Positions 3,590-17,678 of a stretch of 64,000 bases of DNA are shown piece by piece. Both the position numbers and the translations under genes were made by a program. The notes under the pieces were generated by a model, which saw nothing but the letters and a program-made list of their open reading frames with translations, was not told where the DNA came from and did no database searches. Numbering within the stretch: the first letter of the stretch is position 1; every line of letters begins with the position of its first letter. The DNA comes from Alphaproteobacteria bacterium (GTDB lineage Bacteria; Pseudomonadota; Alphaproteobacteria; Rs-D84): NCBI GenBank assembly GCA_015062525.1, contig SUUM01000004.1, positions 24,547 through 88,546 on the forward strand, read 5' to 3'.

Positions 3590-3994
3590 TTATTTATCAA
3601 TAATCTGATTAACCTGGGCAATCAGCCGAACAAACATATCAAATTTTTTTGTTCCTAATTTTGATTTAATCAGATTCATTTTTTCATTATTTGTCTGTGA
3701 AATTTTATTAAATAAATCTTTACCGCGTTTGCTGGGCATAACATAGACACTGCGCCCATCTTCGGGCGACGGCACACGCACAACCAGGCCATGTTCTATC
3801 AATACCGCCAAATGCGCACTAATCATCGCCTTGGACACATGCAACGTTTCCGCCAATATCGCTGGAACATGTGGTCCCGGTGTTGTGCACATAATACTCA
3901 ACACGGCAAATTGACTGGCACGAATCGGCATATCATCCCCCGCATTACGCATAACCGCCCGACAAAACCGCATTATTTCCGCATTCATTTTCAC
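3590..3994 (-). CDS. MarR family transcriptional regulator
   Basis: ~130 aa winged-helix protein with a MarR-like pattern, directly upstream of the efflux operon. Confidence 0.65.
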   Translation of the reverse strand: MKMNAEIMRFCRAVMRNAGDDMPIRASQFAVLSIMCTTPGPHVPAILAETLHVSKAMISAHLAVLIEHGLVVRVPSPEDGRSVYVMPSKRGKDLFNKISQTNNEKMNLIKSKLGTKKFDMFVRLIAQVNQIIDK

Positions 3995-9626: not shown

Positions 9627-12263
9627 TTAATCTACTCCCTCTGGCAAATTCACGTATACACCGCTACCATCACCATCATCAACACAATAACGGAAGCCAT
9701 CACTCCCTTTTTGCACCGTCATCCCAAGTGCACAGACCTGATTAAAATCTGAAAACGAACGTGCTGTACACCAATTATTCTCGGTCGGTTTTTTTGTGAA
9801 ATCAGACCACAACTCTACCCCACTTGTAGTACAACTAGCATCCGCAGCCGCAACCTGTAAACCCTGGTCATCTATCATCGTTGCCGGCAACACCGCAACA
9901 CACTTGGACGATTTTCCCCACTTACTGCGACGTGCACCATTTTCCCAACACAAACACGCACCCCACGACTGGGTCGCAACCCCCAAACTATAATCACGCG
10001 GGCACATATCTTCACCATTTCCAATTCCATATAACGAAACCAACGTATTAGAACCATGTTCACGTATGTCATACCGGGAATCAGTAAAATTCGCCAAACA
10101 CAAATTATTCTCATTATACGCGCCATCATCAAAGAACTGATACTCCATAAATCGTCCCTGCAGATTCGCGCACTGGATGGACAGCATCGATATAATCTGA
10201 TTATAAACCTCGGTCGCGACACCGGTCGGGCGCATATTCCTATGTTCCAGCGCATAGCGATCATTCTCGTCTGCATTTTCAGCCACAAGCCCATATCTGA
10301 CATAGGCGGTATTATTATTATCCGTATTCACGCCACCCCTTGGGACTGCAAACGAAAATCCCACACTATTTTGCAGAACATTCTCTACCTCTGCCACATC
10401 AAACCCACCAAAGGCTTGCTTCATCATACTTTCACTACTGCATGCAGTAATATTTGCCAATTGTTTCGCGCATTCGGATTTAAGAACTTCTACTCTTTGC
10501 CCATTTTCATCATACTTAACCTCATACAAAGCAAACCAATCTGGCGCACTTCCTGAATTTGCTGGGAACAAACCGCTGTACGGGTAATAGAAATTTTCAT
10601 AATTATTCCCACCATATTTATCAAAGCATTGCTTTACAACCGCACGACACGCCGTCAATGTATCTGTGTTTTTAATATTATCCACATATTGTGCAATAAT
10701 ATTACCATCAAACATATTATTACATGACTCCACATAGTCCGAACACATTTGACTATTCAGCACAACTTTATCTGGCTGCAACACAATACTACTATCCCCC
10801 GCCAATTCCGCCATAGCTGTGGTTATTGCCTTATTTCCATTCATATAACAATTGGCCACATAATCCAAGCATCCTTGTTTAATTTCCGAAACCTTTGCTT
10901 TCTGGGCATAATAAATAGACAACATTGCCTTGTCTAAATATTCGGCCCAAACGGTATCTGCGTTTTCCACACACTTATCCAGCGCATCTTGCGCAAATTT
11001 TTTAACCCTGTTTTCAAAATTTTGGACGAATGCCCGATTAGACGAATTTTTAGATAATTTTTGATCAACCGCTTCAACCCCATCGCTGAACACCAGCATT
11101 TGTTCCAATTTATAGAAATCTTCCACTCCAACAATCGGCTTACCGGTTGAAATATCGATATATTGTCCATTATCTAAACACTTATGATAATCTGCACCGC
11201 ACACCTGTTCGCTTAATATCGCCGCTTCCACTTCGTTAATACAGGTTGTAATATCAGACGAATTATGTTTCTGACGATTTTCCACACGCGCCAAATCCAG
11301 CATTGCGCTACCCTCGCGCACAGCGGCCTTCATCTGCTTTTGTGTTTTTTCAACTGCCGCCTGCACTGTATTACAGTCTTGTTCAATTGCCATTAAATAC
11401 GCTGTAATCGCCCGTTGCAACGACGCATCGTTACAATCCGCCCGCACAGCATCACGACATTGGGGATAAACGGCACTATACAGCGCATTACCATTATACG
11501 CGGCGATTGCCTGTCCAGCGTCCACCATCCCAAATGCATTAACCGTATCAAAAGAAATATTAACACTGTTTAAATCTGAATATTTACCACCCACAGATGT
11601 ATCTTCGCCACGAATAGAATTCATAATTGCCTGCAACAACGCCTTGGATGCAGAATTATCATCAGTCAGGGCATTTTCGCCTTCGGTCTGGGTACGCATT
11701 GCCGTTGCCTGAGCGGCGGTCATCCCCACCACATCCAAAGATTCTGTGAACACAGTCAACTTTTCCCCCGCCTGTTCCAGAACGCCACGCACTTCGTCCA
11801 ATTCAAACACACGGTCATTACACGAACAACGGCGATAATTATCATTTTTCAGCATACAAAATTGGTCCATACACGAAAAGTATGTATTTTTACATTGTTC
11901 ATATTCCGCACCGGTCCGCGTAGATGACATTGCCCCCACCGCATCATTTCCCGCGCGCGCAACAATCGGCGTCATATTGCGTGAATTACTGATATTTTTT
12001 GCCACCCGTGTGGTCAAAGAACGAGTGTTTATTCCATTACGTGAAACCGTTGCCCGACTTTTACTAGAATCTGTTGTTGCCCGCGCTGATAAAACAGATG
12101 TACGCGGTTCGCTGCGTTTTACAACCGTGGCGGTTCGTGCCTGGGTCTGGGCCACACTTTTATCTAATTTTGCACGCGAAACCGCCGTTCCATCACGAAC
12201 GGCCGCATTTGCGACACCGACGCAAACCAGCAGATTTGCAAGAAAAACCAGAACTCTCTTCAT
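9627..12263 (-). CDS. large secreted Cys-rich protein, paralog A (unknown function)
   Basis: Signal peptide MKRVLVFLANLLVCVGVANA; T/R/A/S-rich low-complexity segment then a Cys-rich domain homologous to 27766..30762; ORF extends to 12323 but start 12263 gives the signal peptide. Confidence 0.6.
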   Translation of the reverse strand: MKRVLVFLANLLVCVGVANAAVRDGTAVSRAKLDKSVAQTQARTATVVKRSEPRTSVLSARATTDSSKSRATVSRNGINTRSLTTRVAKNISNSRNMTPIVARAGNDAVGAMSSTRTGAEYEQCKNTYFSCMDQFCMLKNDNYRRCSCNDRVFELDEVRGVLEQAGEKLTVFTESLDVVGMTAAQATAMRTQTEGENALTDDNSASKALLQAIMNSIRGEDTSVGGKYSDLNSVNISFDTVNAFGMVDAGQAIAAYNGNALYSAVYPQCRDAVRADCNDASLQRAITAYLMAIEQDCNTVQAAVEKTQKQMKAAVREGSAMLDLARVENRQKHNSSDITTCINEVEAAILSEQVCGADYHKCLDNGQYIDISTGKPIVGVEDFYKLEQMLVFSDGVEAVDQKLSKNSSNRAFVQNFENRVKKFAQDALDKCVENADTVWAEYLDKAMLSIYYAQKAKVSEIKQGCLDYVANCYMNGNKAITTAMAELAGDSSIVLQPDKVVLNSQMCSDYVESCNNMFDGNIIAQYVDNIKNTDTLTACRAVVKQCFDKYGGNNYENFYYPYSGLFPANSGSAPDWFALYEVKYDENGQRVEVLKSECAKQLANITACSSESMMKQAFGGFDVAEVENVLQNSVGFSFAVPRGGVNTDNNNTAYVRYGLVAENADENDRYALEHRNMRPTGVATEVYNQIISMLSIQCANLQGRFMEYQFFDDGAYNENNLCLANFTDSRYDIREHGSNTLVSLYGIGNGEDMCPRDYSLGVATQSWGACLCWENGARRSKWGKSSKCVAVLPATMIDDQGLQVAAADASCTTSGVELWSDFTKKPTENNWCTARSFSDFNQVCALGMTVQKGSDGFRYCVDDGDGSGVYVNLPEGVD

Positions 12264-12382
12264 CTCTGATGAAAAGTCTAGCAAATTTGCCAATTCCCGT
12301 GCAAGCGAATAATACCAAGACATAAAAAACCTATTTTTCTTGTTGCAAAGATTTGAAAATTAATATATTATACCTGTCGCCT

Positions 12383-12469
12383 GCGGATATGGCGGAATTG
12401 GTAGACGCGCTAGTTTCAGGTACTAGTGGTAGCAATACCTTGGAAGTTCGAGTCTTCTTATCCGCACCA
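12383..12469 (+). tRNA. tRNA-Leu (anticodon CAG), type II with long variable arm
   Basis: Manual cloverleaf: acceptor GCGGATA/TATCCGC, anticodon stem CTAGT/ACTAG, loop TTCAGGT, encoded CCA. Confidence 0.8.
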
Positions 12470-12474
12470 GTTCT

Positions 12475-12550
12475 GGGGTTGTAGCTCAGTTGATAGAGCG
12501 CTACGTTCGCATCGTAGAGGTCGTGGGTTTGAGTCCCATCAGCTCCACCA
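12475..12550 (+). tRNA. tRNA-Ala (anticodon CGC)
   Basis: 76 nt; G3:U70 identity pair, loop TTCGCAT, T-loop TTTGAGT, encoded CCA. Confidence 0.8.
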
Positions 12551-12582
12551 AATTTACTTATCGGCTTTGCCGATTAGGAAAT

Positions 12583-12650
12583 TTGAGTGTCTCGGCGGTG
12601 CTTGCACCGACGGACGGAAAGAACTCAAATTGGAACAAACATATTCGATG
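12583..12650. repeat. hairpin element GTCTCGGCGGTGCTTGCACCGACGGAC (single copy of the 27365 tandem-repeat core)
   Basis: Same ~45-bp motif, including flanking aaatttgagt, as the 52-bp tandem units at 27365-27714. Confidence 0.7.
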
Positions 12651-12681
12651 CCGCGAATTGCGGCATTATTAAAAAGTCTTC

Positions 12682-12768
12682 GGGGATATGGCGGAATGGT
12701 AGACGCTGAGGACTTAAAATCCTTTGGTCATTGCGACCGTGTGGGTTCAAGTCCCACTATCCCCACCA
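12682..12768 (+). tRNA. tRNA-Leu (anticodon TAA), type II
   Basis: Acceptor GGGGATA/TATCCCC, loop CTTAAAA, long variable arm, encoded CCA. Confidence 0.8.
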
Positions 12769-12801
12769 CACATTCGCCCAACAAATGGCGATTTTTTATT
12801 T

Positions 12802-12878
12802 GGATGTGTAGCTCAGTTGGTTAGAGCGCTTCGTTCACATCGAAGAGGTCGTTGGTTCGAGTCCAATCACATCCACCA
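12802..12878 (+). tRNA. tRNA-Val (anticodon CAC)
   Basis: 77 nt; anticodon stem CTTCG/CGAAG, loop TTCACAT, T-loop TTCGAGT, CCA. Confidence 0.8.
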
Positions 12879-12892
12879 CAAATTAAACATCT

Positions 12893-13010
12893 CGCCATCC
12901 GGCGGGATTTTTTAGTGGCTAGTGTAAGTGCATCCGTCTGTGCACAGCACAGCCGAGATAAAAAGAGCAAAGAGCAATTAATGTATCTTTACCGCGATGA
13001 ATAAAAGTTT
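12893..13010. repeat. repeat element arm (inverted partner of 13437..13530)
   Basis: agtgtaagtgcatccgtctgtgcacagcacagccgagataaaaagagcaaagagcaattaatgtatctttac is the reverse complement of 13441..13510. Confidence 0.75.
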
Positions 13011-13128
13011 AACAGAGATATTAATTTTTAGAAATTAAGCACCATTACCTGCCCCCGTCGGGCCCCGAAAAATTCAGATGAATTTTTTGGGTGACTTTGT
13101 GGGGCGGGACAGTTTTACTTGACCCGCC

Positions 13129-13314
13129 ATGCGGGGCTTTAGTAAAACTTGGGTGGGGGCAAATATGACAAAACATTCAACACAAGTTATTCGCGCAAAA
13201 CAATTACGCAAAAATATGTCAGACGCAGAAAGCAAATTCTGGTATCGAATTAATCGCAATCAACTAGGTGTAAAATTTCGCCGCAATAACAAAGCCACTT
13301 ACTTCGATAAATAA
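13129..13314 (+). pseudogene. truncated DUF559-like (endonuclease-domain) gene fragment
   Basis: 61 aa matching the N-terminal DUF559 pattern (LRKNMSDAESKFWYRINRNQLGVKFRR) but lacking the C-terminal half; ORF ends at the repeat element at 13312. Confidence 0.4.
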
Positions 13315-13530
13315 AAGTTTAGTGGTTAGTGCAAGTGGTTAGTGGTTAGTGGATGTGTGCGGCGAATGCCGCACATTATAGTGCCATCACTTACCACTTA
13401 CACTAACCACTTATCACTAAGATAAACTTTTATTTAGCGCAGTAAAGATACATTAATTGCTCTTTTTATCTCGGCTGTGCTGTGCACAGACGGATGCACT
13501 TACACTAATCACTAAAAAATCCCCGCTTGG
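13312..13530. repeat. palindromic repeat element (ttagtggttagtg family) plus inverted partner arm
   Basis: Near-identical to 6714..6846; the second half is the reverse complement of 12893..12960; ends in an A-tract/hairpin/T-tract terminator-like module also seen at 23843..23907. Confidence 0.8.
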
Positions 13531-13671
13531 TTGCACCCGCGCAAACGAATGTTTGTGTGGGTGGAATCCAGGGTGTTTTTTTACAAAAAAAAATGTGTGC
13601 TGACACATGTACAAAAACAACAATTTTTTCATACAAAAAACACAAGTAATATCAATATATTAATCCGTGTA

Positions 13672-13699
13672 AAAACTATAAAACAAACCAACGTTTGTT
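13672..13699. promoter_or_regulatory. hix/gix-like 28-bp palindromic site, left copy: TATAAAACAAACC-AA-CGTTTGTTTTATA
   Basis: 13+2+13 architecture with an AA central dinucleotide; A-rich...CC | GG...T-rich half-sites reminiscent of Hin hix sites; the partner site at 13764 has the inverted core. Confidence 0.45.
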
Positions 13700-13763
13700 T
13701 TATACCATTTTGTCAAACAAAAAAATAGCAGATTTCCGCCATTTTTGCAAGCGCAAATCAACT
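13700..13763 (-). promoter_or_regulatory. putative invertible promoter segment: TTGCAA-N17-TGC-TATTTT on the minus strand
   Basis: -35 TTGCAA, 17-bp spacer and extended -10 TGcTATTTT read leftward, away from the Gly-rich operon, in the present orientation. Confidence 0.35.
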
Positions 13764-13791
13764 ATAAAACAAACGTTGGTTTGTTTTATAG
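13764..13791. promoter_or_regulatory. hix/gix-like 28-bp palindromic site, right copy, inverted core: TATAAAACAAACG-TT-GGTTTGTTTTATA
   Basis: Exact reverse complement of the left copy, so the two sites form inverted repeats. Confidence 0.45.
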
Positions 13792-13808
13792 TCTAAATGG
13801 GGGGATTT

Positions 13809-14816
13809 ATGCCGGCAATACATGTTAATAATGTTGATATTCAGGTGTATGAACAGCAGTATACATCACCCACCCTGCACGTGCAAAATACCGACGGAAA
13901 AATATACCATGCAATTGTTATACCCCAGGGGGGCGAATTTCTTGATGCCTCGGAAAAACTGGTATATTCCGCGGATTCAATCAACGAATGCGAACCGGTC
14001 ACATTGGATGCGGGAATGTATCGCGTGGAATTGCGTGGTGGCGCGGGTGGAAAACAATCGCGGTGTAATGTCGGTTTGGGTACAATAAACCCGGTTGCCA
14101 ATACGGTATCCCAGGTTTTTAAATTACCCACACAAACAACCGTATATGCATTTCGTGGTGGCGATGGTAATGACAGTCCCACGGTGACGGTTCATCAGAT
14201 TCCGGGTGGTGGCGCATCGGGTGTGGACAGCATGCTGGTGGTGGGTGACCATGCAATTGTTGGTATCGGCGCACCATCGTCACAGTGTTTTAATTTAGCT
14301 ATTACATCATACCCATACCCCCATGGGGGCACAACAACACGCTTTCAGTGCCAATCCACACCATCTGGAACATATGCCATAGAAAACATTGAAATAGGAC
14401 AAGCTGTAGGTGGTACTTATTTTGGCTGTGGTGGGGGTGGCGGGGGTGCCCCAAATGGTATTGGTGGTACATCGGTTTCATACACAAACGTTAAAATAAC
14501 CGCCGGCACCAATGCGACATCTGATGGGGGTGGGAATGGTGGTGATGCGGAAAATTTAACGGGGGATTCACAAACAAAAAATCTGGGGATTGGTGGCATT
14601 GGTGGCAAAAACGTATATTGGCAATGTGCCGGTCACACGGCGGTATCGTATGGTGGGGGCGGCGGCGGCGCCACATGCATGTTGTACAACCCAAATACGT
14701 GCGCCAGCACAACAAATGCATGGTGTTATTCCGATTGCGCCGATGGTGGCGACGGTGCATCGGGCAGTACCGGCAAATCAGACACCAGTTACGTTAAAAT
14801 TTATAAAATAGGATAA
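13809..14816 (+). CDS. Gly-rich protein, paralog 1 (fibre-like, unknown function)
   Basis: GGGGGG RBS then ATG at 13809; Gly-rich blocks (GGGGGGAPNGIGG, GGGNGGD); ~35% identical to the next gene; no signal peptide. Confidence 0.6.
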   Translation: MPAIHVNNVDIQVYEQQYTSPTLHVQNTDGKIYHAIVIPQGGEFLDASEKLVYSADSINECEPVTLDAGMYRVELRGGAGGKQSRCNVGLGTINPVANTVSQVFKLPTQTTVYAFRGGDGNDSPTVTVHQIPGGGASGVDSMLVVGDHAIVGIGAPSSQCFNLAITSYPYPHGGTTTRFQCQSTPSGTYAIENIEIGQAVGGTYFGCGGGGGGAPNGIGGTSVSYTNVKITAGTNATSDGGGNGGDAENLTGDSQTKNLGIGGIGGKNVYWQCAGHTAVSYGGGGGGATCMLYNPNTCASTTNAWCYSDCADGGDGASGSTGKSDTSYVKIYKIG

Positions 14817-14821
14817 TCATA

Positions 14822-15793
14822 ATGTTATTACCGTTGGCATTATTATCGGCATTATATTTTAAAACATCGGATGGTAATATTTATCATACCATTGATAAAA
14901 TACCGGATGGCATGTGCATACTAAACAATAACGGCGCGGAATTGGTGTACGAAGCAAGCAATTTTAACACCTGTAACGAAATTGTATTACAACCCGGATG
15001 TTATCGTGCGGAACTACGTGGCGGAATTGGCTTACAAAATGAATATTGTTTATCCATTGCCGAACAGGATTTTACCCCCACCATATCCGCAATATTCAGT
15101 ATAAACGAACCAACCACGGTATATGTATTCCGTGGTGGCGATGGTAACCCAGGTGGGGTAAATGTTATAAATAACAGAACTGGTGCATTCGGTGGCGGTG
15201 CATCGGGCGTGGACAGCATATTGGTTGTTGGCGACCGTGTATGGCGTGCATCGGGTGGCGCGGGTAAAACGTGTGTAGCCACAAGATATCATCTGAATGG
15301 CGCTACCAGCTCTAGCTCAGTTTCTGTTGGAAATGGTATTGGTGGGGGCGCAACGTCAAAAATCAGCACTCAATCTCGTTTATATTTACAACAAATATCA
15401 GCACTACGCTTCGAGGTATACGGCATTGGCGGTGGTGGTGGCGCGTCACCAAATGGCGCCGGCGGTACAGATTGGCAATTCCACAGTGCTTTTATCAATG
15501 CGGATGAATATGTAAATGCCGGCACCAATGGCACAGATGAACGTGGTGGTAACGGTGGTGATATTTATTCGTGTAATAACCCATCCTGTACATCCATGGT
15601 ATCCGCCACGGGGGGCACGGGTGGCGCAACCGTTACATATGAATGTGGTGGCCAAACCGCAAAATCATATGGTGGTGGTGGCGGTGGCGGGGCATACAAT
15701 GGAAGCAACTCAACCGCCGCCAACGGCGGTAATGGCGGTTCCGGTTCAACCGGCACCAGCGACACATCATTTGTACGAATTTATCGCATATAA
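14822..15793 (+). CDS. Gly-rich protein, paralog 2
   Basis: AGGA RBS; shares VY.FRGGDGN, GGGASGVDS.LVVGD and TG.SDTS.V.IY.I motifs with paralog 1; tandem arrangement. Confidence 0.6.
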   Translation: MLLPLALLSALYFKTSDGNIYHTIDKIPDGMCILNNNGAELVYEASNFNTCNEIVLQPGCYRAELRGGIGLQNEYCLSIAEQDFTPTISAIFSINEPTTVYVFRGGDGNPGGVNVINNRTGAFGGGASGVDSILVVGDRVWRASGGAGKTCVATRYHLNGATSSSSVSVGNGIGGGATSKISTQSRLYLQQISALRFEVYGIGGGGGASPNGAGGTDWQFHSAFINADEYVNAGTNGTDERGGNGGDIYSCNNPSCTSMVSATGGTGGATVTYECGGQTAKSYGGGGGGGAYNGSNSTAANGGNGGSGSTGTSDTSFVRIYRI

Positions 15794-15809
15794 ATTATTT
15801 ATATCAAAT

Positions 15810-16412
15810 TTATTCCCACCCCTGACGTTTTACAAACTGTGATACAGTCGCGGGATAAACCCCCATTATCTTGGATATTTGATATTTACTGACCCCCATA
15901 TCCAATAAATCTTTCACCAGTTTTGTATTTCTGGCCAGGCCCAATTTCCTTGAACGTGTCGCCATCGGTCGCCCCAGTCTTTTGCCCGTGGCACGAATAC
16001 TGTCCAACGACGCCTTGGTTCGTTGCGATATCAGGTTGCGTTCAATCTCGGCCGATAAACCAAATGCAAATGCCATTACCTTGGACTGAATATCATTTCC
16101 CAAACGATAACTTTCCTTGATGGTCCAAACCTGACAATTTTTATTCATACAAAATTCCAAAATTTTCATAATCTCTAGTACCGAACGCCCCAGACGCGAT
16201 ATCTCGGCGGCAATTAAAATATCACCATCATGCAACCCATTTAACAATAACCATAAACGTCTTTTCGATAATGGTTCACGCGATGATATTTTTTCTTGTA
16301 TCCACCGTTCGACCTTTATATGATTTTGCCTTGAAAATTTATTTATCTCGAAATATTGATGTTCGCACGTTTGTTTATTCGATGACACACGAATATAGCC
16401 GATAATCGCCAT
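15810..16412 (-). CDS. serine recombinase, Hin/Gin/Cin-type DNA invertase (resolvase family)
   Basis: 200 aa; N-terminal catalytic motif IGYIRVSS with the Ser nucleophile; C-terminal HTH (GVSKYQISKIMGVYPATVSQFVKRQG); size typical of small invertases. Confidence 0.8.
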   Translation of the reverse strand: MAIIGYIRVSSNKQTCEHQYFEINKFSRQNHIKVERWIQEKISSREPLSKRRLWLLLNGLHDGDILIAAEISRLGRSVLEIMKILEFCMNKNCQVWTIKESYRLGNDIQSKVMAFAFGLSAEIERNLISQRTKASLDSIRATGKRLGRPMATRSRKLGLARNTKLVKDLLDMGVSKYQISKIMGVYPATVSQFVKRQGWE

Positions 16413-16547
16413 TTTTTGAACCTTTTGATTTAAAATTTATTTTTCAATTTCTTTTACATAATACAAAAGTACAAATTCAATGAATTTTCTGCTTCCATTA
16501 AATATGAAAATTTATTATTATTAACACAGGAAGGAAGAGACAAAGGC

Positions 16548-16883
16548 ATGAGAAAAATTTCATATATCGTTTTTGCGTGTGTATTGTATATCCCATTTGC
16601 AAATGCAAAAATTGCAAGTCAAGAGTATGTTACAACTCATACTAGTAATCACACAAACCCGCATCAGGTCACCAAGGCTCAAGTTGGCCTTGGGAATGTA
16701 CCAAACGTTGACACAACAAATGCGGCTAATATTACTACGGGCACACTTGGGTATGACCGCCTGCCGGTTGGAACGACAGCAAACACCGTTGCCGCCGGAA
16801 ACGATGCCAGGTTTTACGCAATACCAACCGCACAACCAACCGTCAACGCCCCAGAAGGCATGGCGTTGGTATGGTTCAATTAA
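16548..16883 (+). CDS. small secreted protein with a phage tail-fibre-like motif (KAQVGLGNVPNVDT)
   Basis: Strong RBS GGAAGGAAGAG; signal-peptide-like N-terminus; motif resembles the conserved VGLGNVDNTSD block of coliphage tail fibres (from memory, not searched). Confidence 0.45.
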   Translation: MRKISYIVFACVLYIPFANAKIASQEYVTTHTSNHTNPHQVTKAQVGLGNVPNVDTTNAANITTGTLGYDRLPVGTTANTVAAGNDARFYAIPTAQPTVNAPEGMALVWFN

Positions 16884-16892
16884 AAATCGTAC

Positions 16893-16930
16893 TATACACC
16901 ACATAAAAAAACCGCCATACGGCGGTTTTT
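16893..16930. terminator. bidirectional intrinsic terminator
   Basis: AAAAAAACCGCCATACGGCGGTTTTTTTTAT between convergent genes. Confidence 0.75.
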
Positions 16931-16931
16931 T

Positions 16932-17678
16932 TTATTTTAAATAAAATGTTATTGTTGCAACAACACGCACTTTCTTGTTAATCGCCTGACGTTCATTGGA
17001 TGACCAACTGTCGGTTGGATCGCGCGATTCGATACTGAATACACCCTGGTTAGCACTTTTAATTTTGCCCAAACGCGCATCCGCATCCTTGGCGAACTGT
17101 TCACCGGCCGCCGTTGCGTTCTTGGTCGCCTGCTCTATCATAGAAATTTTAATATCGTTCAATCTATTAAAGATATAAATCGGTCCCGCATAATCTTCGG
17201 TAATTGTAATACCACGACGCACCAATTCCCCCATTCTGCGCGACACACTGTCCACCAGCGCAACATTGTGCGACCGCACCATAACCCCCGTTTCAATAAC
17301 ATAACGACCGTCGTTTTGTTGATTCTTTAATTCCGAATCGGTGTACCCCGCGTATTTATCACGTACCTGAACACGCAAGTTCTGAATATCATCGGGCGCA
17401 AAACCCGCATCTATCAAAAACGTATTAATTTCGGTTATATCGTTATCAATGCGCTGTTGCAGTTCCGCCAAATCACCCCCAACACCATTGATTTTAATAT
17501 TCCAAACGGCGGTATCGGCCACAACATCACGTTCGGCCAACCCCTTGACCGTCACCGTTCGTCCCGACATCGCGCGATAAATTCCATCACCAATAAAATA
17601 CCCCCCCAGCGCAATTCCAATCGCCAGCACCACCAGCCAAACACCAGACATAGACTTTAATTTCTGTGTAATTTTCAT
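16932..17678 (-). CDS. SIMPL-domain (DUF541, BP26/YggE-like) periplasmic protein
   Basis: N-terminal TM/signal anchor; ~250 aa with a SIMPL-like pattern; family assignment from recollection. Confidence 0.5.
   Translation of the reverse strand: MKITQKLKSMSGVWLVVLAIGIALGGYFIGDGIYRAMSGRTVTVKGLAERDVVADTAVWNIKINGVGGDLAELQQRIDNDITEINTFLIDAGFAPDDIQNLRVQVRDKYAGYTDSELKNQQNDGRYVIETGVMVRSHNVALVDSVSRRMGELVRRGITITEDYAGPIYIFNRLNDIKISMIEQATKNATAAGEQFAKDADARLGKIKSANQGVFSIESRDPTDSWSSNERQAINKKVRVVATITFYLK

Follow-up and report, generated by a model that had tools for sequence, protein, structure and literature searches.

The islet and its inverted-repeat module

The window analyzed here, a stretch of 64,000 nucleotides (nt) from an uncultured rumen alphaproteobacterium, carries an islet of four open reading frames (ORFs) preceded by a pair of inverted repeats (Table 1). 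The ORFs, present where a preliminary description of this DNA had placed them, encode two glycine-rich proteins (GlyA and GlyB), a small serine recombinase, and a short, predicted secreted protein of 111 amino acids (aa); together with the repeats, they are discussed here as a possible phase-variable system. Homologs have NCBI names of the form "MAG: Alphaproteobacteria bacterium E7007_*"; more distant relatives come from Candidatus Enterousia and from a bin labeled "uncultured Rickettsiales." GlyA and GlyB are indeed tandem paralogs (38% identity over 332 residues, E = 1e-34, tblastn) with divergent N termini, the first ~20 residues being missing from GlyB. The start region of the GlyA gene contains an in-frame ATG at 13797 and a GGGGGG ribosome-binding site at 13800 to 13805. 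As described before, a serine invertase adjoins a variable gene family; the arrangement is not a Mu/P1-style segment with opposed alternative fiber ends, GlyA and GlyB being encoded in tandem on the same strand with no inverted repeats around them.

Table 1. Features of the islet, of the dispersed cassettes, and of related sequences; positions refer to the window unless a contig is given
Feature	Contig	Position	Strand	Remarks
tRNA cluster Leu-CAG, Ala-CGC, Leu-TAA, Val-CAC		12383..12878	+	Four genes just upstream of the islet; context only
Conserved left flank of the repeated cassette		13635..13674	+	Homology among dispersed copies starts here (blastn of window against L008: 13635)
Switch arm 1, 30 nt		13675..13704		Putative crossover site; 28-bp palindromic TATAAAACAAACC-AA-CGTTTGTTTTATA; central AA at 13690-13691
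Spacer, 58 nt		13705..13762	-	Putative invertible segment; promoter-like elements on the minus strand
Switch arm 2, 30 nt		13763..13792		Inverted copy of arm 1; central TT at 13776-13777
GlyA, 335 aa		13809..14816	+	ALK/LTK-GRD-like predicted fold; four hypervariable segments
GlyA hypervariable segments		14289-14348, 14379-14426, 14469-14498, 14679-14720		Residues 161-180, 191-206, 221-230, 291-304
GlyB, 323 aa		14822..15793	+	Paralog of GlyA; starts 5 nt past the GlyA stop codon
Mpi-family small serine recombinase, 200 aa		15810..16412	-	NF009949 match; catalytic Ser in IGYIRVSS; C-terminal helix-turn-helix
Small protein, 111 aa (predicted secreted)		16548..16883	+	Contains KAQVGLGNVPNVDT; phage minor-tail/tail-fiber motif
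Bidirectional intrinsic terminator		16905..16932		Closes the islet ahead of a convergent SIMPL gene
Cassette after rne	L008, L010, L030			Switch module plus GlyA and GlyB locus
Cassette after priA	L009, L031, L034			Switch module plus GlyA and GlyB locus
Cassette after leuS	L028			Switch module plus GlyA and GlyB locus
Cassette after mscS	L029			Switch module plus GlyA and GlyB locus
GC-rich ~200-nt repeat	L008	10001-10205		
GC-rich ~200-nt repeat	L012	9977-10361		
GC-rich ~200-nt repeat	L028	~3690-3830		
TATAAAACAAAC-N4-GTTTGTTTTATA palindrome	L004	3234-3261		Unrelated metagenome contig
TATAAAACAAAC-N4-GTTTGTTTTATA palindrome	L006	1318-1345		Unrelated metagenome contig
TATAAAACAAAC-N4-GTTTGTTTTATA palindrome	L007	12-39		Unrelated metagenome contig

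The recombinase begins with MAIIGYIRVSS, and its catalytic domain (Pfam Resolvase, E = 7e-28, residues 3 to 144) and C-terminal helix-turn-helix (HTH; HTH_38, residues 167 to 196) bear out its earlier identification as a serine recombinase. In PHROG, it matches phrog_125 ("DNA invertase"; E = 5e-39). The best curated match is the NCBIfam model NF009949 ("master DNA invertase Mpi family serine-type recombinase"; E = 3.2e-76), where residues 3 to 197 align with model positions 2 to 196 of 203. Relatives with solved structures are distant (Gin [4m6f], E = 8.8e-9, 38.8 bits; gamma-delta resolvase, E = 2e-7). Because NF009949 is matched over its full length and Gin and gamma-delta resolvase are only distantly related, the recombinase is assigned on its sequence to the Mpi master-invertase family and not to the Hin/Gin/Cin type proposed before. 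Homologs with 70 to 75% identity are common among metagenome-assembled genomes (MAGs) of Alphaproteobacteria, and a 72%-identical homolog in Candidatus Enterousia merdequi carries the Mpi-family name. The protein itself is 100% identical on 23 contigs.

Closer inspection of the region upstream of GlyA revealed two arms that are 100% complementary over 30 nt, with only 7 nt between the end of arm 2 and the ribosome-binding site of GlyA. Each arm consists of 13-bp half-sites around a nonpalindromic AA/TT center, the half-sites differing only at the innermost base. Since the center reads AA in arm 1 and TT in arm 2, the two sites are in inverted orientation; their centers are 86 bp apart, and the 64-kb window contains two sites of this type versus zero expected. 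Crossover sites of small serine invertases have the same layout. Like hix and gix sites, which are 26- to 28-bp imperfect palindromes with a 2-bp asymmetric center, the arm reads ..AAACC AA CGTTT.. at its center; that of hixL is ..AAACC AA GGTTT... The arm core (AAACGTTGGT / AAACGTTGGTT) differs at one position from ARACGTTCGTN, the consensus of Mpi repeats (given in PMC8375218, citing Coyne 2003), and matches this close to the consensus occur with a frequency of ~6e-5 per position in the window, or ~2.5e-3 per arm. A possible third site in the 111-aa ORF (16579 to 16615, 37 nt, 70% complementary) was treated as a chance match because the stretch encodes a conserved signal peptide.

The spacer carries three promoter-like elements on its minus strand: TTGCAA (13750-13745) followed after 17 nt by TATTTT (13727-13722), TTGACA (13716-13711), and an extended −10 element, TGGTATAAA (13707-13699), which straddles the junction of spacer and arm 1. 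As assembled, all three are directed away from GlyA, and a terminator-like hairpin (13746-13721) is located on the same strand. With the spacer as assembled, neither inspection of the sequence nor a promoter scan gave a convincing forward promoter for GlyA. Furthermore, a transcript reading through both arms is predicted to fold into a perfect 30-bp stem (−54 kcal/mol, z = −7.4), and therefore, a functional promoter is expected to lie between the arms.

In another species, a recombinase homolog (72% identical) lies beside the gene of a YadA-anchor adhesin, and a single site, ACTATAAAACAAACCAACGATTGTTTATTA, very similar to the switch arms, is located between the two genes, upstream of the adhesin gene (contig L024). 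The two genes (L024, 4022 to 8577) are divergent and have a 535-aa large serine recombinase as a further neighbor; on L020 (1 to 7619), an invertase homolog is divergently adjacent to the gene of a ~2,000-aa large surface protein, and a Fic/RhuM gene is found next to them. A half-site-like sequence at the 5' end of the invertase gene in the window (16367-16385) was unsupported by the alignment with L020 and L024 and was discarded.

Dispersed cassettes and probable allele exchange

Look-ups anchored on GlyA alleles revealed that repeat, 58-nt spacer, inverted repeat, GlyA, and GlyB form a cassette of ~2.2 kb that occurs at at least five loci, including the window. The module is the same next to the tRNA genes of the window and after rne, priA, leuS, and mscS, and it recurs on L005; the spacer is identical or nearly so at every locus, and GlyB is located downstream of the GlyA gene at all loci examined. 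The rne and priA copies on L008 and L009 share 99.1% identity over 2,212 nt (blastn) and have unrelated flanks. Among the cassette loci fetched, only the window copy has the invertase beside it. On L005, the arms are 100% identical and the spacer is identical at 54 of 58 positions, whereas the family member encoded downstream is only 37 to 38% identical to GlyA or GlyB. The module is thus far more conserved than the gene that follows it, which implies constraint by a trans-acting factor; judged by these sequences, the repeat-spacer-repeat module would be the target of a protein acting in trans.

One locus departs from this pattern. After rplS (L012 to L016), a GlyA/GlyB pair without the switch module lies directly behind a terminator hairpin; a silent donor or a small RNA that escaped annotation could be located here. 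Upstream of it, a promoter-like TTGATT-17-TAATAT and a structured region of ~200 nt were noted. No switch module was found near GlyA homologs of other genera (L017 and L018). A GC-rich repeat of ~200 nt (..GGTGGGTTAACCCACC..), 96 to 97% identical between loci, flanks cassettes in both orientations.

The same GlyA alleles were encountered at different loci across samples, both flanks remaining locus specific. Allele P0019 is present at the rne and priA loci and allele P0026 at the priA and invertase loci, where its partner is a GlyB of 322 aa and of 323 aa, respectively. Hence, exchange can involve GlyA alone, which fits gene conversion and not site-specific exchange. In one sample, the pair at the rne locus is replaced by a single gene for a 401-aa protein (L030, 1971 to 3176), apparently a GlyA-GlyB fusion. 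Alleles shared across loci, exchange of GlyA alone, and the fusion-like gene together point to gene conversion among paralogous loci. Exchange of variable segments between several paralogous loci is reminiscent of pilE/pilS of Neisseria and vlsE of Borrelia, and so is the presence of at least one switchless, silent-donor-like copy behind a terminator (the type after rplS). Unlike in those systems, every copy here has a complete ORF and a ribosome-binding site, a switch of its own is present in most, and exchange is deduced from comparing samples rather than seen within a lineage.

The GlyA and GlyB proteins

In a set of 1.84 billion proteins, the small family of GlyA and GlyB has 76 cluster representatives (E ≤ 1e-3). 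Most full-length members stand alone and comprise ~300 to 360 aa, and several cysteines are invariant. Sequence models scarcely recognize the two proteins. GlyB gave weak Pfam matches (Gly_rich_2, E = 0.007; ALK_LTK_GRD, E = 0.038, with 14.4 bits versus a gathering threshold of 24.5), GlyA did not match PF12810, the ALK/LTK glycine-rich domain (GRD), and one of 36 relatives of GlyA and GlyB reaches an E value of 1.5e-5 to ALK_LTK_GRD. Neither protein matched anything in PHROG, NCBIfam, or PADLOC, a profile search of PDB sequences found nothing, and no sequence match to GlyA was present among 50,697 phage records.

Structure prediction was more informative. An AlphaFold2 model based on 36 sequences was confident (predicted local distance difference test [pLDDT], 83.9; predicted template modeling score [pTM], 0.78) and combines a TNF-like beta sandwich with a glycine-rich lattice. 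The top 20 Foldseek matches in the PDB were all glycine-rich (TG) domains of ALK/LTK (E = 8e-6 to 1e-2), with probabilities of 0.99 to 1.0 for the first 19 and low TM-scores of 0.22 to 0.28. A structure search of BFVD returned many phage proteins annotated as "glycine-rich domain," minor tail, or tail fiber proteins. According to the model, GlyA and GlyB are globular GRD-type domains and not the collagen-like or beta-helix fibers suspected before, and the predicted fold is used by phages at the tips of their tails. Like the ALK/LTK GRD (PF12810) and glycine-rich phage tail proteins such as the tail wing brush gp33 of Bxb1, they combine conserved cysteines with runs of glycine located between the beta strands. 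They differ from the ALK/LTK GRD in a similarity below the Pfam thresholds and in the low TM-scores (0.25 to 0.3), and from both ALK/LTK and phage GRD proteins in being stand-alone proteins of 320 to 350 aa without a kinase, fiber shaft, or signal peptide.

Comparison of 32 close GlyA alleles revealed that the first 160 residues are nearly invariant and that variation is concentrated in four segments located between the glycine motifs. In these segments, the number of nonsynonymous substitutions per site (dN) was 0.15 to 0.66 and its ratio to the synonymous number (dN/dS) 0.5 to 1.7, compared to a dN of 0.004 to 0.13 and a dN/dS of 0.06 to 0.4 in the framework. In T2/S16-type gp38 tail-fiber adhesins, glycine-rich motifs flank hypervariable segments (PMC12892980). 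GlyA is built similarly, with a conserved glycine-rich framework and a few loops that are hypervariable between alleles. gp38 structures were absent from the top fold matches listed, and the resemblance is one of design, with homology not demonstrated.

A model of invertase-controlled expression and its alternatives

Our data point, by a modest preponderance, toward an Mpi-like multilocus inverton mechanism in which a master invertase governs mini-invertons ahead of dispersed, hypervariable GlyA/GlyB genes. In our model, the window locus would be the "home" copy of a phase-variation system, and the recombinase would act in trans on every switch. Strand exchange at the central dinucleotides would flip the 58-nt spacer, which may hold an outward-facing promoter (TTGCAA-17-TATTTT and/or the extended −10 element TGGTATAAA). 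Since the promoter-like elements point away from GlyA, we read the assembled state as OFF; inversion would bring the promoter to a point ~60 nt ahead of the start codon of GlyA and turn the gene ON. In any one cell, only some of the GlyA/GlyB variants would then be expressed, and gene conversion among the loci would reshuffle the hypervariable segments. The products may be ligand-binding or antigenic proteins exposed outside the cytoplasm, exposure being suggested by the combination of conserved cysteines with hypervariable loops.

The precedent is the Mpi system of Bacteroides fragilis, in which 13 or more dispersed regions are inverted by one serine invertase (PMC5903667; PMC12632263). As in that system, a small serine recombinase of the same NCBIfam family is encoded by one gene, many identical repeat-flanked modules are dispersed on the chromosome upstream of variable, surface-related loci, and the repeat core is one base off ARACGTTCGTN. 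Unlike for Mpi, the host is an alphaproteobacterium and not a member of the Bacteroidales, the arms are perfect palindromic sites of 30 nt, and the genes are two-gene protein cassettes rather than polysaccharide operons, with inversion deduced here from the architecture. With Hin, Gin, Cin, and Pin, the recombinase has in common an N-terminal catalytic domain, a C-terminal HTH, and the gene of a protein with a tail-fiber motif next door; it differs from Hin and Gin in its distant similarity (E = 9e-9), the lack of opposed gene ends and of a phage context, and a segment of 58 nt instead of 1 to 4 kb. No obvious candidate for a Fis-dependent enhancer was seen, an enhancer-model search not having been made.

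Several observations speak against inversion, foremost the uniform orientation of the module. None of the 11 completely assembled switches, which come from six loci and several samples, was inverted; all share one orientation. Flipped copies were not found in a metagenome scan with the site pattern (which gave L005, in the same orientation, and three unrelated contigs with TetR-operator-like sequences), in a scan of genome contigs with the spacer, or in scans of viral contigs, and protein-anchored look-ups of the cassette loci gave one orientation only. Seven contigs start inside arm 2 (L002, L011, L032, L033, L035, L036, and L037). Their ends were considered as inversion breakpoints and rejected as an artefact of assembly with k = 141, at least for the MEGAHIT contigs, because the first 141 nt, and no more, are common to L002 and L011 (MEGAHIT, k141), the break being caused by the multicopy repeat. 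Also unfavorable is the small size of the segment: promoter inversions in Bacteroides, as reported for Bacteroides intestinalis, span 183 to 186 bp (PMC8375218), compared to 58 nt, with 86 bp between the crossovers, here. The recombinase scores 255.6 bits on NF009949, a near miss just below the curated cutoff of 272. TTGCAA-17-TATTTT agrees with the sigma-70 consensus at only 8 of 12 positions, below the threshold of the promoter scan, and a consensus promoter scan called neither this pair nor TGGTATAAA. Finally, neither GlyA nor GlyB has a signal peptide, so that their surface exposure is putative. A single orientation, for its part, would be expected alike from a population strongly biased toward OFF and from a static element. 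The earlier notion of a domesticated phase-variable system is strengthened by the switch-like inverted repeats, which it had not included, and the earlier interpretation as a whole is borne out in part.

A static element is the alternative that deserves the most attention, although we consider it unlikely. The palindromes would then be operators, bound by a TetR-like repressor or by the recombinase HTH acting only as a repressor, around a fixed promoter, and no inversion would take place. The common orientation of all assembled switches is what this explanation predicts. Furthermore, the exact 12-nt half-sites TATAAAACAAAC and GTTTGTTTTATA form single perfect palindromes in three unrelated contigs; the one on L004, likely an operator, is flanked by a TetR-family gene and an acyl-CoA synthetase gene, and therefore, the arms could be operators as well. 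The site next to the invertase homolog on L024 is alone, with no partner within 12.6 kb, and a spacing of 86 bp is short for a recombination loop. However, no TetR gene is present in the window or in any cassette context fetched, and the asymmetric 4-nt centers are exact inverted copies of each other at every locus, in arms that are perfect over 30 nt. The arm center matches the Mpi consensus (PMC8375218) to within one mismatch, and an Mpi-family invertase is encoded next to it. A fixed arrangement would also leave GlyA without a convincing forward promoter in the assembled orientation, and read-through transcripts would bear the perfect 30-bp duplex.

It is imaginable, if rather improbable, that a single Mpi-type invertase flips 58-bp mini-invertons, which would rank with the smallest switches known for serine recombinases, at five or more loci and thereby selects pairs of phage-tail-derived, ALK-GRD-like receptor-binding proteins. 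These proteins would serve as interchangeable tips of fibers, gene transfer agents, or tailocins or as ligands binding to a host or to protists, with gene conversion diversifying them.

Still less probable is that the cassette is a mobile or recombining unit, the palindromes being att-like targets for insertion, excision, or exchange in an integron- or shufflon-like manner instead of sites for promoter flipping. A 2.2-kb cassette that is 99% identical at unrelated loci would be well explained, as would identical alleles at different loci in different samples and the intergenic position of the cassettes after housekeeping genes, beside other dispersed repeats. Against this, both flanks are locus specific, exchange of GlyA alone fits homologous gene conversion, the right-hand end of the cassette yielded no site, and inverted sites 86 bp apart have the geometry of inversion and not of integration. 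A search for flanking direct repeats or att sites bounding an island, as suggested in the preliminary description, gave terminator-like similarities only. A decayed prophage remnant, also proposed there, in the form of a tail-fiber module of the Mu, P1, or e14 type whose invertase, tail-fiber fragment, and glycine-rich tip proteins would be left over without function, is largely refuted and very improbable, despite the motif shared by the 111-aa ORF with phage minor tail and tail fiber proteins and the adjoining tRNA cluster, since every ORF is intact, 23 contigs carry the invertase with 100% conservation, the GlyA/GlyB cassette is intact and present in multiple copies at housekeeping loci with a framework dN/dS of 0.06 to 0.4, the 111-aa family is full length, signal peptide bearing, under purifying selection, and found in several genera, and no other phage genes are nearby, GlyA being unmatched in the 50,697 phage records.

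If the Mpi-like mechanism is correct, the Mpi strategy, documented for Bacteroides, would extend to uncultured gut and rumen Alphaproteobacteria, with a master invertase governing a previously undescribed and narrowly distributed protein family. The crossover spacing of 86 bp would test the limit of DNA looping by a serine recombinase. In GlyA and GlyB, bacteria would employ the ALK/LTK glycine-rich fold as a module that is both hypervariable and switchable, and the family may help to reveal the ligands of this fold outside animals and phages.

The 111-aa protein and the surroundings of the islet

The VGLGNV-like motif of the 111-aa ORF, first noted for its resemblance to coliphage tail fibers, reflects genuine homology and not coincidence. 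The protein matches more than 20 PHROG families, many of them tail, minor tail, or tail fiber families (E = 2.6e-10 to 1e-4); tail-annotated families have E values of 6e-10 to 2e-6, and the best match overall (2.6e-10) is a family without functional annotation. By tblastn, 122 phage records match the ORF, the top ones among the matches listed being nearly all minor tail proteins; Gordonia phages match with 47% identity over 68 aa (E = 7e-5). The protein has a signal peptide ending in ..FANA (followed by KIAS) and a conserved C-terminal WFN. The signal peptide, already suspected from the N terminus, is conserved in homologs: most members of this conserved, stand-alone family are 111 to 194 aa long, and they share the signal peptide and an invariant W-F/A at the C terminus. 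The family is under purifying selection and is present in several genera and related MAG lineages.

The adjacency of this ORF to the invertase holds in the window and is lineage specific. As in the window, the neighborhoods are of the housekeeping type in two other lineages (L038 and L040), where homologs are located beside rpmH or beside a secretin gene and rpsT, and no invertase or switch was found beside or upstream of them. The 111-aa ORF is probably a bystander to the switch system, and its position by the invertase is probably incidental; a role as partner or anchor of GlyA and GlyB is a candidate function. A derivation from a large adhesin was discarded, as the protein has no similarity to the large adhesins encoded beside the homologous invertases on L020 and L024.

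As stated in the preliminary description, there are no other phage structural genes among the surrounding genes, and PADLOC defense-system models gave no matches. The GC skew of the window is negative nearly throughout positions 1 to 64000 (cumulative to −8.8), and the islet (14001 to 16000) is among the few positive stretches. Between the tRNA cluster and the cassette, a long inverted repeat (12904 to 13523) surrounds a 61-aa ORF that resembles a DUF559 fragment (13129..13314). Its arms are 12904-12970/13457-13523 (67 nt, 97%) and 12969-13031/13403-13465 (63 nt, 81%). About 70 nt of it recur on L009, past the priA-locus cassette at the end of the contig, and it may be a dispersed element similar to miniature inverted-repeat transposable elements. 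Short tandem AGTGGTTAGTG(T/C)AAGTGGTTAGTG repeats lie beside terminators in the window (12911-12930, 13318-13357, and 13388-13418) and recur at other cassette loci, upstream of the cassette in L028 and at the start of L010. Further upstream, on the minus strand (9627-12323), an ORF for a cysteine-rich protein of 898 aa has no family match above threshold and only a weak match to DUF5039; a signal-peptide-like stretch, MKRVLVFLANLLVCVGVANA, starts ~22 residues into the listed ORF.

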